This document shows positions 3,514-29,979 of a DNA stretch of 64,000 bases, in pieces. The notes beneath the pieces are model-generated. The model did no database searches. It was not told the DNA's origin and saw nothing but the letters and a program-made list of their open reading frames with translations. The translations under genes and the position numbers were made by a program. The stretch is from an uncultured Candidatus Saccharibacteria bacterium (GTDB lineage: Bacteria > Patescibacteriota > Minisyncoccia > UBA9983): NCBI GenBank assembly GCA_964372755.1, contig CAYJQX010000001.1:107382-171381 (forward strand), in the 5' to 3' direction. Every line of letters begins with the position of its first letter. Positions within the stretch are counted from its first letter, which is position 1.

Positions 3514-3699
3514 ATGCAAGAAATGAAAGCTTTGTGCATGAAATGCAGAGATGGCAATAACAAGCCAACGATGCAGGTCATGAAAGATATGAAGGTGGAA
3601 GAGAAAAACAACCGCTTTTCCGCCAAGGGCAAATGCTCTACTTGCGGGGGGAATATGTTCAAATTCCTCTCCAGAGACGATGCGGAGAGGATGAAATAG
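3514..3699 (+). CDS. DUF5679-like zinc-ribbon small protein
   Basis: C.KC...NGR.A.KG.C..CGG.MFKF pattern; followed by strong terminator. Confidence 0.5.
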   Translation: MQEMKALCMKCRDGNNKPTMQVMKDMKVEEKNNRFSAKGKCSTCGGNMFKFLSRDDAERMK

Positions 3700-3714
3700 G
3701 ATGTCCCTAACATA

Positions 3715-3748
3715 AAAAGCTCTTTTGCTAACAAGCAAAAGAGCTTTT
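3715..3748. terminator. bidirectional rho-independent terminator (15-bp perfect stem AAAAGCTCTTTTGCT/loop AACA)
   Basis: perfect inverted repeat flanked by A-run and T-run. Confidence 0.7.
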
Positions 3749-3768
3749 TATGTTAGAATTATTAAGAA

Positions 3769-9271: not shown

Positions 9272-9727
9272 ATGGACCATTGTATTTTTTGTGAAATAGT
9301 AAAGGGCGCGTTGCCATGTCACAAAGTTTGGGAGGATGATAAGCATTTGGCTTTTCTTTCTATTTTCCCAAACACGGAAGGCGTAACAGTGGTGGTGCCA
9401 AAAAATCACTATCCAAGCTATGCTTTTGATTTGGCCGACGAGGTTCTCGCAGAGCTTGTCTTGGCTACTAAAAAAGTGGCAAAAGTTTTGGATGCAAAAT
9501 TAGACGATGTCGGCCGAACAGCCATGGTGTTTGAAGGTTTCGGGGTAGACCACGTCCATGCCAAACTTTTTCCGATGCATGGGACAGAAAATATGAAAAA
9601 ATGGCGTCCAATAGAATCTGACAGAAATAAATATTTTGAAAAATACGAGGGTTATATTTCTTCTCATGATTACGAGCGAGCCGACGATGAGAAACTTGCT
9701 AGATTGGCGAAGAAACTGAGGGAATAA
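9272..9727 (+). CDS. HIT family hydrolase
   Basis: CIFCEI..., histidine triad VDHVHAKLFP. Confidence 0.85.
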   Translation: MDHCIFCEIVKGALPCHKVWEDDKHLAFLSIFPNTEGVTVVVPKNHYPSYAFDLADEVLAELVLATKKVAKVLDAKLDDVGRTAMVFEGFGVDHVHAKLFPMHGTENMKKWRPIESDRNKYFEKYEGYISSHDYERADDEKLARLAKKLRE

Positions 9728-10066: not shown

Positions 10067-11857
10067 ATGGAAATAAGAAATATTGCCATCATCGCCCATG
10101 TTGATCATGGAAAGACCACGCTAACCGACGCTATTATGCGTTTAACTGGCGCGTCAAAAGAAGGCGTGTCTATGGATTCAAACGCTCTGGAAAAGGAGCG
10201 GGGCATTACCATTTATTCCAAAAATACTTCTGTTCGTTATAAAGACACTAAAATAAATATTTTAGATACTCCCGGCCACGCTGATTTTGGATCGGAAGTG
10301 GAGCGAGTATTGCGCTCCATAGATTCCGTTTTACTCGTGGTGGACGCGCAGGAAGGACCGATGCCTCAAACTCGATTTGTTTTGAAAAAATCATTAGAAC
10401 TTGGTTTGAAGCCCATTGTCGTCATTAACAAAATAGACAAACCGGCCGCCAATCCTAAAAGAACCGAGGGTCAAGTTCTGGATCTTTTTATAGAGTTAGG
10501 GGCAAATGACGAACAATTGGATTTTCCTGTTGTCTATGCCATCGGGCGGGAAGGCGTTGCCAAAAAAAAGCTTACCGATCACGCTGAAGATCTTTTCCCT
10601 CTGTTGCAGACAATTTTAGAAAAAGTGCCTTGCGCCTCTTCGGAAGAAAAAATAATGAGACCTCTCAAGGCCCAGCCTTTCAATCTTGCCTACGATGATT
10701 TCTTGGGAAGAATGGCGATTGTGCGCGTTTATGAAGGCGCGATAAAAGTCGGGCAAAATATTTTTGTAAAGAATAACAAAGGAGAAACGCGTTCGGCCAA
10801 AATCACCAAGATGTATTCTTTTGAAGGATTGGAGAGAAAAGAAACCGTTGAAGCTCTTGCGGGAGATATTGCCATGGTTGCTGGCATTAGCGATATCGGG
10901 ATAGGCGAGACTATTTTAGACAATATTCAAACTGAAGCTTTGCCGTCTATTGCCATAGATGAACCAACAATTTCTCTTTCTTTTTTGGTGAATAATTCTC
11001 CTTTTAGTGGCAGAGAAGGGAAATTTGTAACATCGCGTCAAATAAGGGATTATTTAGAACGTGAGCTAGAAGTGAATGTGGGACTGAAGGTGGATTTTAC
11101 TTCCGCGGATAATTTTCGTGTTTTCGGGAGGGGAGAACTTCATATCGGGATTTTGCTTGAAAACATGAGACGCGCCGGTTATGAGGTTCAGGTTTCTCAA
11201 CCGCAGGCTGTGGTGCGCGAAGAAAAAGGAATAAAAATGGAGCCTTTTGAAGAGGTCATCGTTGATTGTCCAGAAAAATACCAAGGAGCAGTTATAGAGA
11301 AATTAGGCGCTCGCACCTTTGTCCTTACTCTTGTTTCTCAAAGAGATGGGGCGGTCAGGCTTAATTTTGAAGGTCCAACGAGGGGACTTTTGGGATATCG
11401 CAATCAGTTTGTTATTGATACAAAGGGAGAGGGTATTATTTCTTCCCGCTTTGTCGGGTTTCGAGCTTATGCCGGGGAAATTCGCCGCCGTGTCACAGGC
11501 TCGATGATTTCTATGGCAGATGGCAAGGCGCTTGGTTACGCGTTGTGGAATTTGCAAGAGAGAGGTGTTTTATATATTGGGCCCGGCACGGAAGTGTTTG
11601 AAGGAATGGTAATCGGAAATACTATCAAAGGAGAGGAGATGACGGTCAATCCTACCAAAGGCAAACAGCTTACAAATATGCGCGCTTCCGGCTCCGATGA
11701 AGCTATTACTTTAGTCCCGCCATATGAGCTTACAATAGAAAGGGGCTTGGAAGTTATGGCGGAAGACGAGTATTTGGAAATTACTCCCAAAAGCGTTCGC
11801 CTGCGAAAACAATATCTTTCCGAAACAGAGCGGAACAAGGCCAAAAGACCAGTTTAA
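10067..11857 (+). CDS. typA: translational GTPase TypA/BipA
   Basis: [26 protein letters not shown]-motifs; start placed at MEIRN (10067), not the upstream ORF extension. Confidence 0.9.
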
Positions 11858-11917: not shown

Positions 11918-12337
11918 ATGAGATTTTTTGAGAGAACTTCTTTATTCGCTTTGCGTTTAGTTACTGGCTGGATGTTTTTTTATGCCGGTATTATCAAAAT
12001 ACTTGATTCAAACTGGACTTCGGCGGGTTATATCAAGGGAGCAAAAGTCTTGCCCGAAGTTTATTCTTTTTTTCTGCAACCAAACATCTTGCCTTTTGTT
12101 GATCTTGCCAACAAATGGGGCCTAACTCTTCTGGGAGTCTCTTTGATACTGGGAGTTTTTGTAAGATTCAGCGCCCCTTTAGGCATGGTTTTAATGGCGC
12201 TTTACTATATTCCGATTATGAATTTTCCCCATCCTAATCCGCATTCTTATATTGTAGACGAACACATTATTTATATCTGCGTCCTTTTTGTCCTTATGAT
12301 ATTTAGAGCCGATAGGGCTTGGGGTGTAGGCAGGTAA
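11918..12337 (+). CDS. DoxX family membrane protein
   Basis: RLVTGWMFFYAGIIKI pattern. Confidence 0.8.
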   Translation: MRFFERTSLFALRLVTGWMFFYAGIIKILDSNWTSAGYIKGAKVLPEVYSFFLQPNILPFVDLANKWGLTLLGVSLILGVFVRFSAPLGMVLMALYYIPIMNFPHPNPHSYIVDEHIIYICVLFVLMIFRADRAWGVGR

Positions 12338-21059: not shown

Positions 21060-21614
21060 ATGAAAAGATCTACATATATTGTTTTGGGCGTTATTGCCAT
21101 TATTGTTGTTTATTTTTGGTCTTCTTACAACGGTTTGATTTCTACAAACGAATCCGTAGATACGCAATGGGCGCAGGTGGAGACTCAATATCAGAGGCGT
21201 TTTGACCTTATTCCAAATCTGGTGGAATCCGTGAAAGGTATAATGGCCCAAGAACAAGCGGTTTTTGGCGCTTTGGCGGAAGCTAGAAGCCGTTATGCCG
21301 GCGCGACAAATAATAACGACAAAGCGAGAGCCGCAGGCGAACTTGAGGGCGCTCTCTCAAGACTTTTGGTGGTAATGGAGGCTTATCCTCAATTAAAATC
21401 CAGCGAAAATGTTTTGTCTCTGCAGAACGAACTTGCCGGCACGGAAAACAGGGTAAGCGTGGAGAGAAAGCGATATAATGACGCCGTCCGCAACTATAAT
21501 TTGAACGTAAAAAGATTTCCTAAAAACTTAATCGCCTCTCTTTTTGGTTTTGGAGAAAAAACTTATTTTGAATCGGTGGAAGGTTCTGAAAACGCTCCTA
21601 AAGTAGATTTTTAA
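21060..21614 (+). CDS. LemA family protein (paralog)
   Basis: RRFDLIPNLVE..., MEAYPQLK LemA signature. Confidence 0.85.
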   Translation: MKRSTYIVLGVIAIIVVYFWSSYNGLISTNESVDTQWAQVETQYQRRFDLIPNLVESVKGIMAQEQAVFGALAEARSRYAGATNNNDKARAAGELEGALSRLLVVMEAYPQLKSSENVLSLQNELAGTENRVSVERKRYNDAVRNYNLNVKRFPKNLIASLFGFGEKTYFESVEGSENAPKVDF

Positions 21615-21626
21615 AAAAACAAACTA

Positions 21627-22514
21627 ATGCGCCGGATTTTAATTCTCCTTGTTTTAGGAGTTTTCCTTGCTCCTTTTGTCTCTTTGGCTGAACTGGATTT
21701 CAAAAAACCCTTGGGTTTCTTTAACGACCAAGCTGGTCTTCTGTCTCCAAAGTCAGCTCCGGTCATAGAATCCCTTCTTGGCGCTTACGAAAAAGAAACA
21801 GGAAACGAGATAGGCGTTTTGATTATTCCAAGCTTGGAAGGCGAACCGATTGAAGATGTGGCGATAGATATTTTCCAAAAATGGGGGATTGGAAAGAAAG
21901 GGAAAGACAATGGAATATTGCTTCTGATCTCAAAAGAGGACAGGGAAGCAAGAATAGAGGTTGGTTATGGCCTGGAGCCGGAATTAACCGATGGCGAAGC
22001 CGGAGCGATTATTCGAAATGTTCTAACTCCCGCCTTCAAAGAGGGAAGATACGATGAAGGCGTGGGTTTGGTGATAGAGGCGATAATAAAAGGTGTTGGG
22101 GGAACTCTGTTGAGTGAAGAAGAGATCCCAAGGAGGCCAGAAAATTTTTGGACGAAACTCCTTTCCGATTATTTGTTTTTATTATTTTTTGCGGTTGTAT
22201 GGATAGTAAGTGTTTTAGGCCGATCTAAATCTTGGTGGCTTGGAGGGGTTTTGGGAGGGCTTATTGGCGCGGGAGTAGGTTTTTGGACCGGAGTTTTACT
22301 GACCGGAATTTTTTGGTTCCTCGGTCTTGGATTTCTCGGGTTGCTCTTTGATTTTTTTGTCTCCAAAGCTTACGCCAAAAGCAAAATGAATGGAGGCACT
22401 CCGCCGTGGTGGATAGGTGGAGGCGGTTTTGGCGGAGGCGGTTTCGGTGGTGGAGGGTTCGGCGGTTTTGGCGGAGGTTCTTCAGGTGGTGGGGGATCAA
22501 GTGGGAGGTGGTAA
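21627..22514 (+). CDS. TPM domain protein (DUF477/TPM phosphatase-like) with C-terminal TM region and Gly-rich tail
   Basis: GVLIIPSLEGEPIEDVA...GILLLISKEDREARIEVGYGLE; LemA-TPM gene pairing is typical. Confidence 0.8.
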   Translation: MRRILILLVLGVFLAPFVSLAELDFKKPLGFFNDQAGLLSPKSAPVIESLLGAYEKETGNEIGVLIIPSLEGEPIEDVAIDIFQKWGIGKKGKDNGILLLISKEDREARIEVGYGLEPELTDGEAGAIIRNVLTPAFKEGRYDEGVGLVIEAIIKGVGGTLLSEEEIPRRPENFWTKLLSDYLFLLFFAVVWIVSVLGRSKSWWLGGVLGGLIGAGVGFWTGVLLTGIFWFLGLGFLGLLFDFFVSKAYAKSKMNGGTPPWWIGGGGFGGGGFGGGGFGGFGGGSSGGGGSSGRW

Positions 22515-22547
22515 AAATCTTTCTTTGAAATATAATTCTAATAAAGT

Positions 22548-22913
22548 ATGAAAATCATCATAATCAAAGAAAAAGCAGACCCAAAGGAACTTTTGGAAGT
22601 TGTAAAAGATAGTTATGACACGATGGTAAAAATCGCAGTTGATATTAACAAAAGGATTGCAACAGCAGGGGGCGAGTGGCACTCCGAGGGTCAAGATATT
22701 CTAGTCAAAGAGGCCGGATCATTGGGGGTGGATGTTTGGGGCTGTAATTTATATCCTTGGAACGAGCCAGAAAAAAGAATCGAATATGTCTCTTTAATTA
22801 ACATTAAACCAGCTATAGGACATAAAAATATGGAAATTGAAAATAAAGAGATAAGGCACAAAATAAAATCCATCGTGGAGGATTTAATAATCGGCCCGAC
22901 GGAAACTATTTAA
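22548..22913 (+). CDS. hypothetical protein
   Basis: 121-aa ORF, no motif recognised. Confidence 0.4.
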   Translation: MKIIIIKEKADPKELLEVVKDSYDTMVKIAVDINKRIATAGGEWHSEGQDILVKEAGSLGVDVWGCNLYPWNEPEKRIEYVSLINIKPAIGHKNMEIENKEIRHKIKSIVEDLIIGPTETI

Positions 22914-22920
22914 AGAGTCT

Positions 22921-23226
22921 ATGGCTATATCCAGAGAAAAGTGGTTTGCTATGTCAAAAGAAATTCGTCTTCGCCATATGGCGACAGAGCTTAAACGCGC
23001 CGAGAAAGCCAGCGAAAGAAAAGAAAAGGATATGCTTGCCGGCGCCTATGAGAGAATTTTAGATATGCTGGATGCGACAGTGGAAGATAAAAACTGGGGC
23101 GATAAAAAAGATATTTTTGCTTTAAGAGACGCAATAGCGACGCTCTATTCTGGCGAAAACCACTCCGCCTTAAGCCGGTTTTTTGCCTCAAGCCTTCTTA
23201 AAGAAGCCGACACACTTTCTTCTTGA
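22921..23226 (+). CDS. hypothetical protein
   Basis: 101-aa ORF. Confidence 0.35.
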   Translation: MAISREKWFAMSKEIRLRHMATELKRAEKASERKEKDMLAGAYERILDMLDATVEDKNWGDKKDIFALRDAIATLYSGENHSALSRFFASSLLKEADTLSS

Positions 23227-23315
23227 ATCTTGCCTCCCCTCTACTAGACAAAAATCCCCTATATGGGAGAGTTCGTATAGTGGTCTAGTGCCAAAATAAG
23301 AAGTAATGTGGTAAG

Positions 23316-24002
23316 ATGTATGTCATGGTCGATGTTGGGGGTTTAAGATACCCAAAAAAGAGTCATCGAAAACAAGTAATCTTGCCTAAATTTTCAGTAC
23401 GACTGTCAGAGTTTTTTGGAATTATGATGGGTGATGGTGGTATAAATAATCTTTGGCAAGCAAATATCACACTGAATTCAATCAAAGACGCTGAATATTC
23501 CAAGCATGTTTCTGTTTTATGTAAGAAACTTTTCGGTATTACGCCGGCCATACGGAAAAGAAAGACAAGTAACACGTTGGTAGTATCAATTACTAGTACG
23601 TCTGTAGTAGATTTTTTGGTTAATAATGGTCTTGTTCGAGGCAATAAACTCAAGGCTGGGTTGAGGATTCCAAAATGGATTTTGAAAAAACCATCATACA
23701 AAAAAGCATGCGTTCGCGGACTTGTAGATACTGACGGATGTATTTTTGTTCATTCTCATAGAGTAGACGGTAAGGCTTACAGAAATGTCGGCCTTTGTTT
23801 TACAAGTTACTCACCGGAGTTAATTATGGAAGTGGCGGATATTCTTGCTGAGTTTGGAATCACAGCACATATTAATAAGCGGAGGCGAAATATTTACTTG
23901 TATCAAGAAAGAATCGTGAGGGAGTATTTAAAGATATTCGGTACTTCAAATAACCGTATAGGGTCTGTGTATAGTAATTGGAGAGATGCGAGAGCGGTTT
24001 AA
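23316..24002 (+). CDS. LAGLIDADG homing endonuclease (double-motif), free-standing
   Basis: two LAGLIDADG-like motifs: FFGIMMGDGGIN and RGLVDTDGCIF; last 7 codons overlap tRNA-Ser. Confidence 0.75.
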   Translation: MYVMVDVGGLRYPKKSHRKQVILPKFSVRLSEFFGIMMGDGGINNLWQANITLNSIKDAEYSKHVSVLCKKLFGITPAIRKRKTSNTLVVSITSTSVVDFLVNNGLVRGNKLKAGLRIPKWILKKPSYKKACVRGLVDTDGCIFVHSHRVDGKAYRNVGLCFTSYSPELIMEVADILAEFGITAHINKRRRNIYLYQERIVREYLKIFGTSNNRIGSVYSNWRDARAV

Positions 24003-24069
24003 TCGGCAGACCTGGAAAGTCTGTGTGCTAGAAATGGCACCGAGGGTTCGAATCCCTCTCTCTCCGCCA
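23980..24069 (+). tRNA. tRNA-Ser (anticodon GGA), type II with long variable arm, CCA encoded
   Basis: manual fold: acceptor GGAGAGA/TCTCTCC, 3-bp D-stem, anticodon arm CAGAC-CTGGAAA-GTCTG, variable arm GTGC...GCAC, T-arm GAGGG-TTCGAAT-CCCTC. Confidence 0.85.
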
Positions 24070-24102
24070 AAATTGAGAGTCCGAATCGGAAGCTGAAATA
24101 TT

Positions 24103-24127
24103 GTTAGACACTCGGTGTCTAACAGGT
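24103..24127. repeat. palindrome GTTAGACACTCGGTGTCTAAC, copy 1 of 2 (second at 40866)
   Basis: perfect inverted repeat in a promoter-like region upstream of the methyltransferase gene. Confidence 0.6.
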
Positions 24128-24179
24128 GTATCGAGTTAACATAAGTGTTGAGTAAAATTCTAACTTTCTTGTCGGCGAT

Positions 24180-24830
24180 TTGAAGGAGGCAAGGTATCTC
24201 TATAAATTTCTTATGAACTCACAAACTCTTTATTCAAAAATCTCATGTTTATATGATCTTGGACTTTGGCTAAATGGTTACAAAAGGGCTACTGGTTTTA
24301 TCGTTAGGAATTTGCCGTTTGAGGCCAACGACAAAATCAAGGTTTTGGATGCTGGTTGCGGTTCTGGTTTATATTCAATAGCGATTTTAAAGAATTTTCC
24401 GAATGCACGAATAATCGCTTTCGATCTCAACCAAGCAATGACGGAAAAAATGAAAGCGAACATTGCGCGATTAGGCTATGAGAATCGCGCGGACATTTTT
24501 GTTGGCAATGTTCTTGAAAACATCAGCAGCGAGCGAGATTTTGATTTGGTTATTACTGGTGGTGTGCTTGAGTATGTAGCTATAGAAAAGGCGGTACAAA
24601 ATCTCGCTCGCTATGTAGGAAATAGCGGTTATTTTCTAAATTCTCCTGTTCAAGATAATTGGTTAGGAAGGCTCCTGGCAAAATTTTTCGGTTTTACACC
24701 GCATTCATCACAAGAAAATATTTCGGCATTTGAGCGAAATGGGTTAAAGTTATATGAATCGGTAAAAATACCATGGCGTTTTTTCCCGATTAATTTAGTA
24801 AAGGAAGCTTATATTTTCAAAAAACTATAA
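24180..24830 (+). CDS. class I SAM-dependent methyltransferase
   Basis: VLDAGCGSGLYS (motif I) ... IIAFDLN (motif II). Confidence 0.8.
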   Translation: MKEARYLYKFLMNSQTLYSKISCLYDLGLWLNGYKRATGFIVRNLPFEANDKIKVLDAGCGSGLYSIAILKNFPNARIIAFDLNQAMTEKMKANIARLGYENRADIFVGNVLENISSERDFDLVITGGVLEYVAIEKAVQNLARYVGNSGYFLNSPVQDNWLGRLLAKFFGFTPHSSQENISAFERNGLKLYESVKIPWRFFPINLVKEAYIFKKL

Positions 24831-29456: not shown

Positions 29457-29475
29457 CATACATTGTCGGTTTCTG

Positions 29476-29948
29476 TATTGTGGTCTATAAGCCGAATTCT
29501 GTCCCCGATTTTAACGTCGGGGCGCGATCATTTATCTTGTTCCGCTTCTCGCGAAACGGAATCCTTGCGGCACATCCGCCGATGAGGCGGATACGGCCTT
29601 GCACCGGGTAGGGTTTACCACTCTTTTCTGTTGCCAAAAAAGAGACTGCGATAGCTTTTAGATTTCTCTCAAAAACATTCGCAAACTTTTCACCTTTCAT
29701 TTCGCGTAGCGAAATGACCCTGAGCGAGACCAACTTCAGGTTGGCACAGTCGAAGGGTATCTCTCGCTCGGGATAATTTCGCTACGCGAAATTAGTATTG
29801 TCTCTGTGACACTTTCCCTCCCTCAGAGATTGCCCTCCGAGGTGACAGGTGTTACCTGTTGCCCATATCTTTTATTGATTACTCAAAAAAGATGGTGTTC
29901 GGACTTTCCTCCCCTCGACAAAGCTCGGGGCGATCACGCGACCACATT
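29476..29948 (-). ncRNA. rnpB: RNase P RNA (bacterial type A-like); boundaries approximate
   Basis: minus-strand matches to universally conserved blocks: GGGAGGAAAGTCCGAACACC (P4 5' strand, CR-I), GGTAAACCCTACCCGGTGCAAGGCC (cf. E. coli GGUAAACUCCACCCGGAGCAAGGCC), ACAGAATTCGGCTTAT (P4 3' strand, cf. ACAGAACCCGGCUUAU); P3 hairpin CCCCGAGC...TCGAGGGG. Confidence 0.8.
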
Positions 29949-29979
29949 AAAGAAACCTAAGTCAATTCTACTACATTAT

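Follow-up and report, generated by a model that had tools for sequence, protein, structure and literature searches.

The window analysed in this work is a stretch of 64,000 nucleotides (nt) from an uncultured Candidatus Saccharibacteria bacterium (contig CAYJQX010000001.1, positions 107,382 to 171,381). It carries a free-standing, single-chain LAGLIDADG endonuclease gene with two motifs, and the 3' end of this gene lies inside a complete tRNA-Ser(GGA) gene. We interpret the pair as a selfish module of two genes, in which a homing endonuclease gene (HEG) is fused by an overlap of 23 nt to a tRNA-Ser(GGA) of its own, the tRNA serving as rescue copy in an intronless form of homing; we put the probability of this interpretation at roughly 0.6. 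The evidence comes from the linkage of the whole family to tRNA-Ser, from a relic of a native tRNA-Ser gene upstream of the endonuclease gene, and from alleles with and without the endonuclease gene at syntenic loci.

The endonuclease gene runs into a complete tRNA-Ser(GGA) gene

An open reading frame (ORF) of 228 amino acids (aa) at 23316..24002 on the forward strand, reported in a sequence-only reading of the window, is present. The ATG at 23316 lies partly within a conserved extended -10 box (23309-23317), which makes the ATG at 23325 the likelier start; the gene then spans 23325..24002 (+) and encodes 225 aa plus the stop, which is the usual length in the family. A Pfam search, which the same reading had proposed, returned LAGLIDADG_3 (E 1.7e-13) as well as LAGLIDADG_2 and the WhiA-type LAGLIDADG domain. 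The protein contains two LAGLIDADG motifs, ..FFGIMMGDGGIN.. and ..VRGLVDTDGCIF.. (GIMMGDGG with D40, GLVDTDGC with D140; Asp codons at 23433-23435 and 23733-23735 of the forward strand), and both D40 and D140 are invariant in an alignment with 20 homologues, which bears out the earlier call of a single-chain enzyme. An AlphaFold model built on this alignment (predicted local distance difference test 87.3, predicted template modelling (TM) score 0.84) shows a doubled alpha-beta-beta-alpha-beta-beta-alpha unit, the order of elements expected for the two domains that build the DNA-binding saddle of such enzymes. Its top PDB match in Foldseek is the archaeal intron endonuclease I-Tsp061I (E 5.8e-13, TM score 0.69/0.76), followed by intein endonucleases, I-AniI and I-DmoI, with WhiA lower in the list; a sequence-profile search of the PDB returned intein-associated endonucleases only, at about E 2e-5. 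The window protein is thus predicted to be an active endonuclease, with a putative target that is discussed below.

The tRNA-Ser(GGA) at 23980..24069 (+) begins GGAGAGATGCGAGAGCGGTTTAATCGGC... and was found to be intact and intron-free by ARAGORN; the Rfam tRNA model scores it at 53.6 bits against a gathering score of 29. It is a class II tRNA, complete with CCA, and is the copy that travels with the endonuclease gene. The two genes share 23980..24002 (+), so that tRNA nt 1-23 supply the codons (W)RDARAV and also a TAA stop located within the D loop; the earlier statement that the last seven codons, WRDARAV, and the stop come from the acceptor stem and D arm of the tRNA is correct.

A LAGLIDADG gene next to a tRNA could have been borne by a group I or archaeal-type intron, with the tRNA-like 5' piece that lies upstream of the ORF as 5' exon, and CPR (Candidate Phyla Radiation) rRNA genes do carry introns that encode LAGLIDADG proteins (PMC11270868). 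The downstream tRNA is, however, complete and contiguous, and an Rfam scan of 22500-24700 (E<=10) found no group I or group II intron, nor any other RNA family besides the tRNA and noise. No intein and no host protein frame was found around the ORF, and in most related loci the upstream piece and the 3' part of the tRNA are not complementary. An intron-borne ORF is ruled out by the contiguous tRNA and the Rfam scan, in agreement with the sequence-only reading, and we give this explanation practically no credence.

The family is linked to tRNA-Ser genes

To find relatives, one genome per species was scanned, which yielded 310 loci, of which 80 were retrieved and examined. Close relatives (L001-L062 and L074) have more than 46% identity to the window protein, distant ones (L063-L080) 36-45%. 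The 80 loci belong to Patescibacteria and a few Omnitrophota. In about 75 of them ARAGORN detected a same-strand tRNA-Ser whose start lies within the 3' end of the endonuclease gene or directly at it, and the exceptions are contig ends. The anticodon of the linked tRNA-Ser is GGA in the close relatives and GCT, TGA or CGA in the distant ones. In most close loci the two genes overlap, either by 23 nt, which places the stop in the D loop, or by 14 nt. Near-identical tRNAs follow the endonuclease gene in the window and in L002, L004, L007, L044 and L061.

The database holds 524 homologues of the window protein, nearly all of 225 aa and 63-76% identical, from metagenome-assembled genomes of Patescibacteria; WRDAR[AV]V, at their C-terminus, hardly varies. 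Identity to the window protein roughly tracks taxonomy, with 60-76% in Paceibacteria-like genomes and about 50% in other CPR classes. The ORF is intact in about 55 of 62 close loci, and decayed copies are seen in L059 and L062, which have frameshifts, and in L082, which is a pseudogene. With a cut-off of E<=1e-30, a hidden Markov model search of 1.84 billion representatives at 50% identity gave at least 387 clusters, the majority of a longer type. This longer type is seen in the distant relatives, whose proteins have about 330-350 aa and an additional N-terminal part of about 125 aa with a helix-turn-helix (HTH)-like motif that is sub-threshold in Pfam. In the proteins of this sister family (e.g. 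L071 1611-2630 and L075 2587-3642) an N-terminal ..S.RTLRDWRREK.. is followed by a GG..YG.PGT.EGR.KGG linker and the LAGLIDADG core, and the genes abut tRNA-Ser genes with the anticodons GCT, TGA or CGA.

A relic of a native tRNA-Ser gene lies upstream of the endonuclease gene

The tRNA-like fragment upstream of the ORF is a real tRNA-derived relic beyond chance. Its tRNA-Ser-aligning part is located at 23266..23291 (+), GGAGAGTTCGTATAGTGGTCTAGTGC, and corresponds to nt 1-26 of a tRNA-Ser: the 5' strand of the acceptor stem, a D stem of 3 bp and a D loop of 11 nt. Aligned locally against a panel of tRNA-Ser 5' ends, it scores 22, compared with a mean of 10.7 and a maximum of 15 for the reverse strand of the 80 loci used as control. 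Scores of 17-25 were obtained in 14 loci, and relics lie 37-87 nt upstream of the start in L001, L004, L005, L006, L009, L010, L012, L022, L023, L038, L040, L048, L062 and L143; in many loci the relic is close to GGAGGCGTCGCATAGTGGTCTAGTGC. The earlier reading had pointed to such a fragment, and the scores against the controls substantiate it.

The relic does not come from the tRNA that now stands downstream. Its D arm in the window is identical to the native consensus TCGCATAGTGGTCTAGTGC at 18 of 19 positions and to the linked tRNA at 10 of 19; the D arms of relic and linked tRNA differ in every case, with 6-15 of 19 positions identical. The native D-arm motif is also found inside intact tRNA-Ser genes elsewhere in the retrieved loci. 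A metagenome scan with the relic D-arm motif TCGCATAGYGGTCTAGTGC returned at least 121 matches on at least 120 contigs. Among the 121 matches listed, 117 lie in intact tRNA-Ser genes (66 GGA, 29 GCT, 13 CGA, 8 TGA and 1 ACT), three in genes cut by a contig end, and one, in L143, is a relic followed by an endonuclease gene. None of the 66 GGA genes among these matches has an endonuclease gene nearby; since such HEG-free tRNA genes were retrieved by the relic motif itself, the counts are not a frequency among CPR tRNA-Ser(GGA) genes. A native-type tRNA-Ser(GGA) is found for example in L132 (GGAGGCGTCGCATAGCGGTCTAGTGCGCACGCTTGGAAAGCGTG...). Because the motif occurs in intact HEG-free tRNA-Ser genes, the relic is the 5' part of an ordinary native CPR tRNA-Ser.

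Two further observations concern native tRNA-Ser genes. In L094 (~12210-12300) and L110 (~613 nt after the GGA gene) ARAGORN reports a tRNA-Ser with the anticodon ACT and a native CPR D arm; an A34 is unusual for a bacterial tRNA-Ser. In L083 two tRNA-Ser(GGA) genes stand in tandem, separated by 236 nt and without an endonuclease gene, which bears on the possible first origin of a rescue copy.

Syntenic loci with and without the module

The sequence-only reading had suggested a mobile gene and a comparison of related tRNA-Ser loci. Alleles with and without the endonuclease gene share both flanks, and this presence and absence at syntenic loci upholds mobility. Searches with blastn revealed that the HEG-containing (HEG+) loci L016, L019, L020, L022, L023, L026, L031, L033 and L062 have an htpX upstream flank in common with the HEG-free loci L132, L123 and L114, with 70-78% nucleotide identity over 450-615 nt. 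Downstream flanks match as well (L019/L132 84%, L022/L114 87% and L024/L097 86% over 240 nt). In L114 an extra 850 nt between htpX and the tRNA was considered as a remnant of the endonuclease gene and proved to be a GGDEF-like gene.

In a multiple alignment the HEG-free allele consists of the flank, GGAGGCGTCGCATAGCGGTCTAGTGCGCACGC...CGCCTCCGCCA and the trailer, and the alleles of L022 and L062 consist of the flank, GGAGGCGTCGCATAGTGGTCTAGTGC, then aaaa, the promoter, the ORF and GGAGAGGTGCCTGAG...CCCTCTCCGCC. The HEG+ allele thus retains native nt 1-26 and diverges into the cassette after nt 26. The relic acceptor GGAGGCG is the acceptor of the local HEG-free native allele. The linked tRNA differs from the syntenic native tRNA in the acceptor stem, D arm, anticodon stem, variable arm and T stem, and in L022 the relic acceptor GGAGGCG cannot pair with the 3' strand of the linked tRNA, CCTCTCC; such non-pairing is usual. 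L012 retains both a 5' relic (GGAGACG..) and a 3' relic (..CGTCTCCGCCA), which pair with each other and flank the endonuclease gene together with a complete, different tRNA. Between L022 and L062 the flanks are 82% and the HtpX proteins 88.7% (aa) identical, compared with 67% for the endonuclease genes and 75% for the linked tRNAs; with 75% identity in such close hosts, the linked tRNAs are non-orthologous. This is the pattern of co-conversion: the whole linked tRNA differs from the native allele, and close hosts carry different pairs of endonuclease gene and tRNA. Over 91 pairs from 14 loci, HtpX and endonuclease identities show a correlation r of about 0; with 14 loci only, and the frameshifted L062 among them, this comparison is uninformative on vertical descent, the L022/L062 contrast excepted.

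At the other end, the window tRNA is followed by a 3' trailer (24070..24123, +) consisting of AAATTGAGAGTCCGAATCGGAAGCTGAAAT and a hairpin, GTTAGACAC-TCGG-TGTCTAAC. The first 30 nt after the tRNA are identical at 25 of 30 positions to the trailer of the HEG-free tRNA-Ser(GGA) loci L097, L132 and L144, where a hairpin is present too. The trailer is host-derived and lies outside the element, and the right end of the element is therefore the 3' end of the tRNA. Since the relic ends at nt 26 and the linked tRNA is unlike the native one throughout, the tRNA belongs to the incoming element. From these alignments the mobile unit appears to be the endonuclease gene together with its own tRNA-Ser, which replaces the native gene from about nt 27. 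Two other delimitations were rejected. The segment GAGAGTCCGAATCGG just after the tRNA was considered as a relic of the native T arm; it is host trailer, found also after HEG-free tRNA-Ser(GGA) genes, and a true 3' relic is seen in L012 only. A cassette ending at tRNA nt 26 with a native 3' part disagrees with the acceptor stems of relic and linked tRNA and with the difference over the whole tRNA.

The sequence-only reading had proposed that the endonuclease gene was inserted right at the 5' edge of the tRNA gene. The corresponding scenario, in which the endonuclease gene alone entered just 5' of a resident native tRNA-Ser and the upstream fragment is a small target duplication, would account for an ORF that ends inside the tRNA and for a host-like downstream trailer, and it suits L033, L034, L035 and L057, where no relic was seen and the D arm of the linked tRNA resembles the native one. 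The relic, however, stops at nt 26 and not at nt 1 and is of the native type, the linked tRNA is unlike the allele of the syntenic HEG-free relatives over its whole length, the relic acceptor usually cannot pair with the 3' strand of the linked tRNA (as in L022), and L012 has matching 5' and 3' relics around the endonuclease gene and tRNA. This part of the earlier reading is not upheld, and we regard the scenario as improbable.

Several features of the surroundings were noted. A conserved trailer, AAATTGAAAATCGGAATCGGAAGCCGAAAT with a GC-rich hairpin (GGGGTCGCGCCGAAGGCGCGAC), follows tRNA-Ser(GGA) in HEG+ and HEG-free loci; it was seen in the window (24070-24123), L097, L132, L144, L009, L019 and L025, and no Rfam family matches the trailer with its hairpin. 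It occurs twice in inverted orientation in L097 (~9337-9432 and 10877-10963), and the contigs L014, L023, L025 and L059 end in it. A second motif, TATCGGAG..GACCCGAGTGCC(T)TA, is located in the first 30-80 nt after the tRNA-Ser in L022, L026, L027, L032, L061 and the HEG-free L114, and no Rfam family reached the gathering score for it in L022 or L027. L048 (~3640-3760) shows a three-layer arrangement with a 5' relic upstream, the ORF (C-terminus WMSTRTV*), a decayed module tRNA and, at a distance of about 76 nt from it, an intact tRNA-Ser(GGA) of the native type; a simple replacement model explains it only partly. In most related loci htpX (an M48 peptidase gene) or a TPM-domain gene lies directly upstream, a conserved synteny of the tRNA-Ser(GGA) locus. 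In the window, genes for LemA and a TPM-domain protein lie upstream (21060-22514), and a DUF5674 gene and an ORF of 101 aa lie between these and the element.

Expression signals and an inverted repeat

The extended -10 box TGGTAAGAT (23309..23317, +) ends 7 nt before the ATG at 23325. Of 58 close loci, about 35 have the pattern TGnTAnnnT ending 6-8 nt ahead of the start codon used in the family. In the distant loci L071, L075 and L067 the start codon is located at relic nt 7-9, and the -10 box lies directly before the relic. A scan of the region for sigma-70 consensus promoters and terminators found no more of them than in shuffled sequences, and the promoter call therefore rests on conservation across loci. 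The box probably functions as promoter, and from its position a leaderless mRNA and a product of 225 aa are predicted. No convincing separate promoter for the tRNA was found in the window region, so co-transcription of ORF and tRNA is the simplest reading. RNase P RNA, of the bacterial class A, is encoded in the window at 29472-29949 (-) with a score of 139.6 bits; it spans 478 nt compared with the 367 positions of the model and probably contains one or more insertions.

The D-loop segment of the relic, GGTCTAGTGC, has an inverse copy, GCACTAGACC, 12-14 nt downstream, which stops some 2 nt short of the -10 box. Counted separately, the arms were each found in 24-25 of 64 close loci, compared with 2-3.5% of control windows, and 16 loci have both arms at constant spacing. 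In L143 the arms form a perfect pair of 10 bp. The acceptor part of the relic is decayed in many loci that keep the GGTCTAGTGC arm, and a few changes in the arms, in L032 (GCTCTAG/CTAGAGC) and in L005 and L024 (GTGT/ACAC), are compensatory. The inverted repeat therefore appears to be under selection. It may serve as an operator resembling one half of the homing site or, equally, form a hairpin in read-through transcripts. In the window the relic arm is present and the inverse arm is absent, which fits an older insertion.

A proposed homing cycle with a rescue copy

Loci with relics like their own local native alleles show the break at nt 26/27 again and again, which speaks for a site-specific insertion at the junction of D arm and anticodon stem. 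We propose that the endonuclease recognises native CPR tRNA-Ser(GGA) genes around this junction, with a putative site of about GGTCTAGTGC|GCACGCTTGGAA that includes the anticodon, and would cut near nt 26/27. The break would be repaired from an allele that bears the module, leaving native nt 1-26 behind as a dead relic and replacing the remainder by spacer, promoter, endonuclease ORF and module tRNA-Ser. The module tRNA, with its different D arm, would not be a target and would supply the essential tRNA function lost by the cut; the rescue copy would thus take the place that a self-splicing intron or an intein holds for other homing endonucleases. A leaderless mRNA from the extended -10 promoter would run on into the tRNA, and cleavage by RNase P at the tRNA 5' end would free the tRNA and strip the last seven codons and the stop from the mRNA, which would keep the endonuclease low.

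LAGLIDADG homing endonucleases cut both strands of targets 14-40 bp long. A site of 22 bp centred at nt 26/27 would include the anticodon and would in this way explain the isoacceptor specificity of the clades. Among the matches listed, 15 of 66 native GGA genes read GTGC|GCAC at nt 26/27, 49 of 66 have G27 and 58 of 66 have C28; GTGC|GCAC is a small palindrome of the kind that LAGLIDADG enzymes cut across, which is suggestive only. A difference between the D arms of relic and linked tRNA is to be expected if the linked copy must escape cleavage.

Several points weigh against the proposed module. The target site is deduced from the relic breakpoint only, and the HEG-free tRNA genes were retrieved with the motif of the relic. 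The linked tRNAs of L012, L033, L034/L057, L035 and L048 keep a native-like D arm with 2-3 changes, which in L033 and L035 are compensatory changes of D-stem pairs, and in the distant L079 the linked tRNA has the native motif unchanged; a different D arm can therefore not be the whole story of immunity. An internal promoter for the tRNA may lie inside the 3' end of the ORF. Finally, endonuclease identities that roughly follow taxonomy, together with unusually well-preserved ORFs, would also fit long vertical inheritance under selection at the level of the host.

The native-like D arms also suit an endonuclease whose target lies elsewhere, with the tRNA linkage reflecting a strong transcription unit or a recombination hot spot, and the tRNA-Ser target is itself deduced from sequence. 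Against this, all lineages are linked to tRNA-Ser specifically, with anticodons that depend on the clade, and in many loci the relic breaks off at one and the same position of the tRNA; no further neighbour was found to be common to the related loci. We consider a target elsewhere very improbable.

Vertical inheritance is the core of another explanation, according to which the LAGLIDADG protein was domesticated and is now encoded by an immobile host gene, for example one for a regulator or a factor for tRNA-Ser expression, that is kept in place by shared transcription, with the relic as a single ancient scar. The largely intact ORFs agree with it, as does conservation about as high as that of HtpX (mean 58% vs 64% aa identity), the fall of identity to the window protein with taxonomic distance, the conserved inverted repeat at the promoter and the Foldseek match to WhiA, a regulator derived from a LAGLIDADG protein. 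WhiA lacks the catalytic acidic residues, unlike this LAGLIDADG family. Domesticated regulators of the WhiA type have lost these residues and have a C-terminal HTH, whereas the window protein keeps both Asp residues, which are invariant, and has no C-terminal HTH in its 225 aa according to Pfam and the AlphaFold model. In addition, HEG-free syntenic loci are common among the matches listed, the relic acceptor stems match the local native allele and so point to repeated local insertions instead of one ancient scar, the modules of close hosts are non-orthologous, and some copies have decayed (L059, L062, L082). We regard domestication as unlikely; it stays alive because the ORFs are highly preserved and identity roughly follows taxonomy.

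A further-reaching version of the selfish module can be put forward tentatively. The element might be a natural cleave-and-rescue system, in which the endonuclease destroys the essential tRNA-Ser(GGA) gene of the host and the inseparably overlapped, uncuttable tRNA-Ser rescues the cell, with RNase P in the role of splicing and throttling the enzyme. The superfamily, which comprises at least 387 clusters when grouped at 50% identity and in its majority has an additional HTH-like N-terminal domain, would then act at all four tRNA-Ser isoacceptors and be a major driver of tRNA-Ser replacement in CPR bacteria.

Comparison with known systems

The functionally closest analogue of the proposed module is SegB of phage T4, which recognises a conserved tRNA-gene motif and drives the inheritance of itself and of neighbouring tRNA genes into genomes without it (PMC2330249). 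SegB likewise is a free-standing endonuclease gene among tRNA genes; its donor allele is spared through a sequence difference, as that of the module would be in the proposed cycle. It differs as a phage-borne GIY-YIG enzyme that is encoded by a separate gene and targets the T-psi-C stem-loop region. Here a LAGLIDADG ORF on a CPR chromosome overlaps the tRNA, the native gene is cut down to a relic of 26 nt, and the module provides the only visible replacement copy.

The closest match by enzyme family and host is found in the genes for 16S and 23S rRNA of CPR bacteria, where LAGLIDADG endonucleases are encoded in group I introns (PMC11270868; PMC11809585). Superfamily and host phylum are the same, and a conserved structural RNA gene is targeted in both; in the rRNA genes, however, the RNA is restored by splicing, whereas the window has no intron, a gene copy restores the RNA and presumably RNase P separates it from the mRNA. 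The term tRNA occurs 0 times in PMC11270868. In literature other than that of subscription journals, no published description of a LAGLIDADG-tRNA arrangement in CPR, Parcubacteria or Patescibacteria was found, only the cases in rRNA introns. The arrangement in the window differs from both SegB and the rRNA introns in that it resides on a cellular chromosome, has no intron, has an ORF that overlaps the rescued RNA gene and leaves a stump of 26 nt; it is also set apart by being shared by hundreds of lineages at all four tRNA-Ser isoacceptors.

Free-standing endonuclease ORFs of organelles, for example in fungal mitochondrial atp6 and cox genes, insert in gene ends and bring a duplicate of the displaced segment. 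As here, a duplicated segment keeps the host gene functional, the ORF continues in frame into sequence of the host gene, and the displaced segment degenerates. The organellar cases differ in that they concern protein-coding genes and 3'-terminal duplications, and here a tRNA gene leaves a 5' relic and the whole tRNA is exchanged. I-TevI binds an operator that resembles its homing site over its own promoter and so represses itself. Comparable in the present family is the partial copy of the putative homing site (GGTCTAGTGC with the inverse GCACTAGACC) directly upstream of the endonuclease promoter; its arms are 12-14 bp apart with a few compensatory changes, and a hairpin in RNA or DNA is an equally good reading. 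Synthetic cleave-and-rescue drives destroy an essential gene with a nuclease and rescue carriers with a tightly linked uncuttable copy; they are engineered with Cas9 for diploid animals, and the present element would be natural, bacterial and spread by homologous repair. Islands that integrate at tRNA genes encode an integrase of the tyrosine or serine type and show the 3' end of the tRNA as a direct repeat, whereas here the LAGLIDADG gene is the only ORF between the flanks and the repeated part is the tRNA 5' end. The arrangement is best described as free-standing LAGLIDADG homing with a linked rescue copy, a variant of intronless homing.

Significance

Homing endonucleases in essential genes are thought to persist by means of self-splicing introns or inteins or, in phages, between genes. 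The module described here would be a third solution, in a cellular genome: a replacement copy of an RNA gene is fused to the endonuclease ORF, and its removal from the transcript is left to tRNA 5' processing. If correct, this would be a natural counterpart to synthetic cleave-and-rescue drives. The stop codon inside the tRNA would bring processing by RNase P into competition with translation, possibly with trans-translation, and makes both testable in a defined case. For meganuclease engineering, the family offers natural LAGLIDADG scaffolds by the hundred, and their targets would be predictable as tRNA-Ser genes with a defined anticodon. If the proposed cycle is true, it would show a route by which such elements enter an essential gene without an intron, and part of the odd diversity and horizontal replacement of CPR tRNA-Ser genes would be explained.

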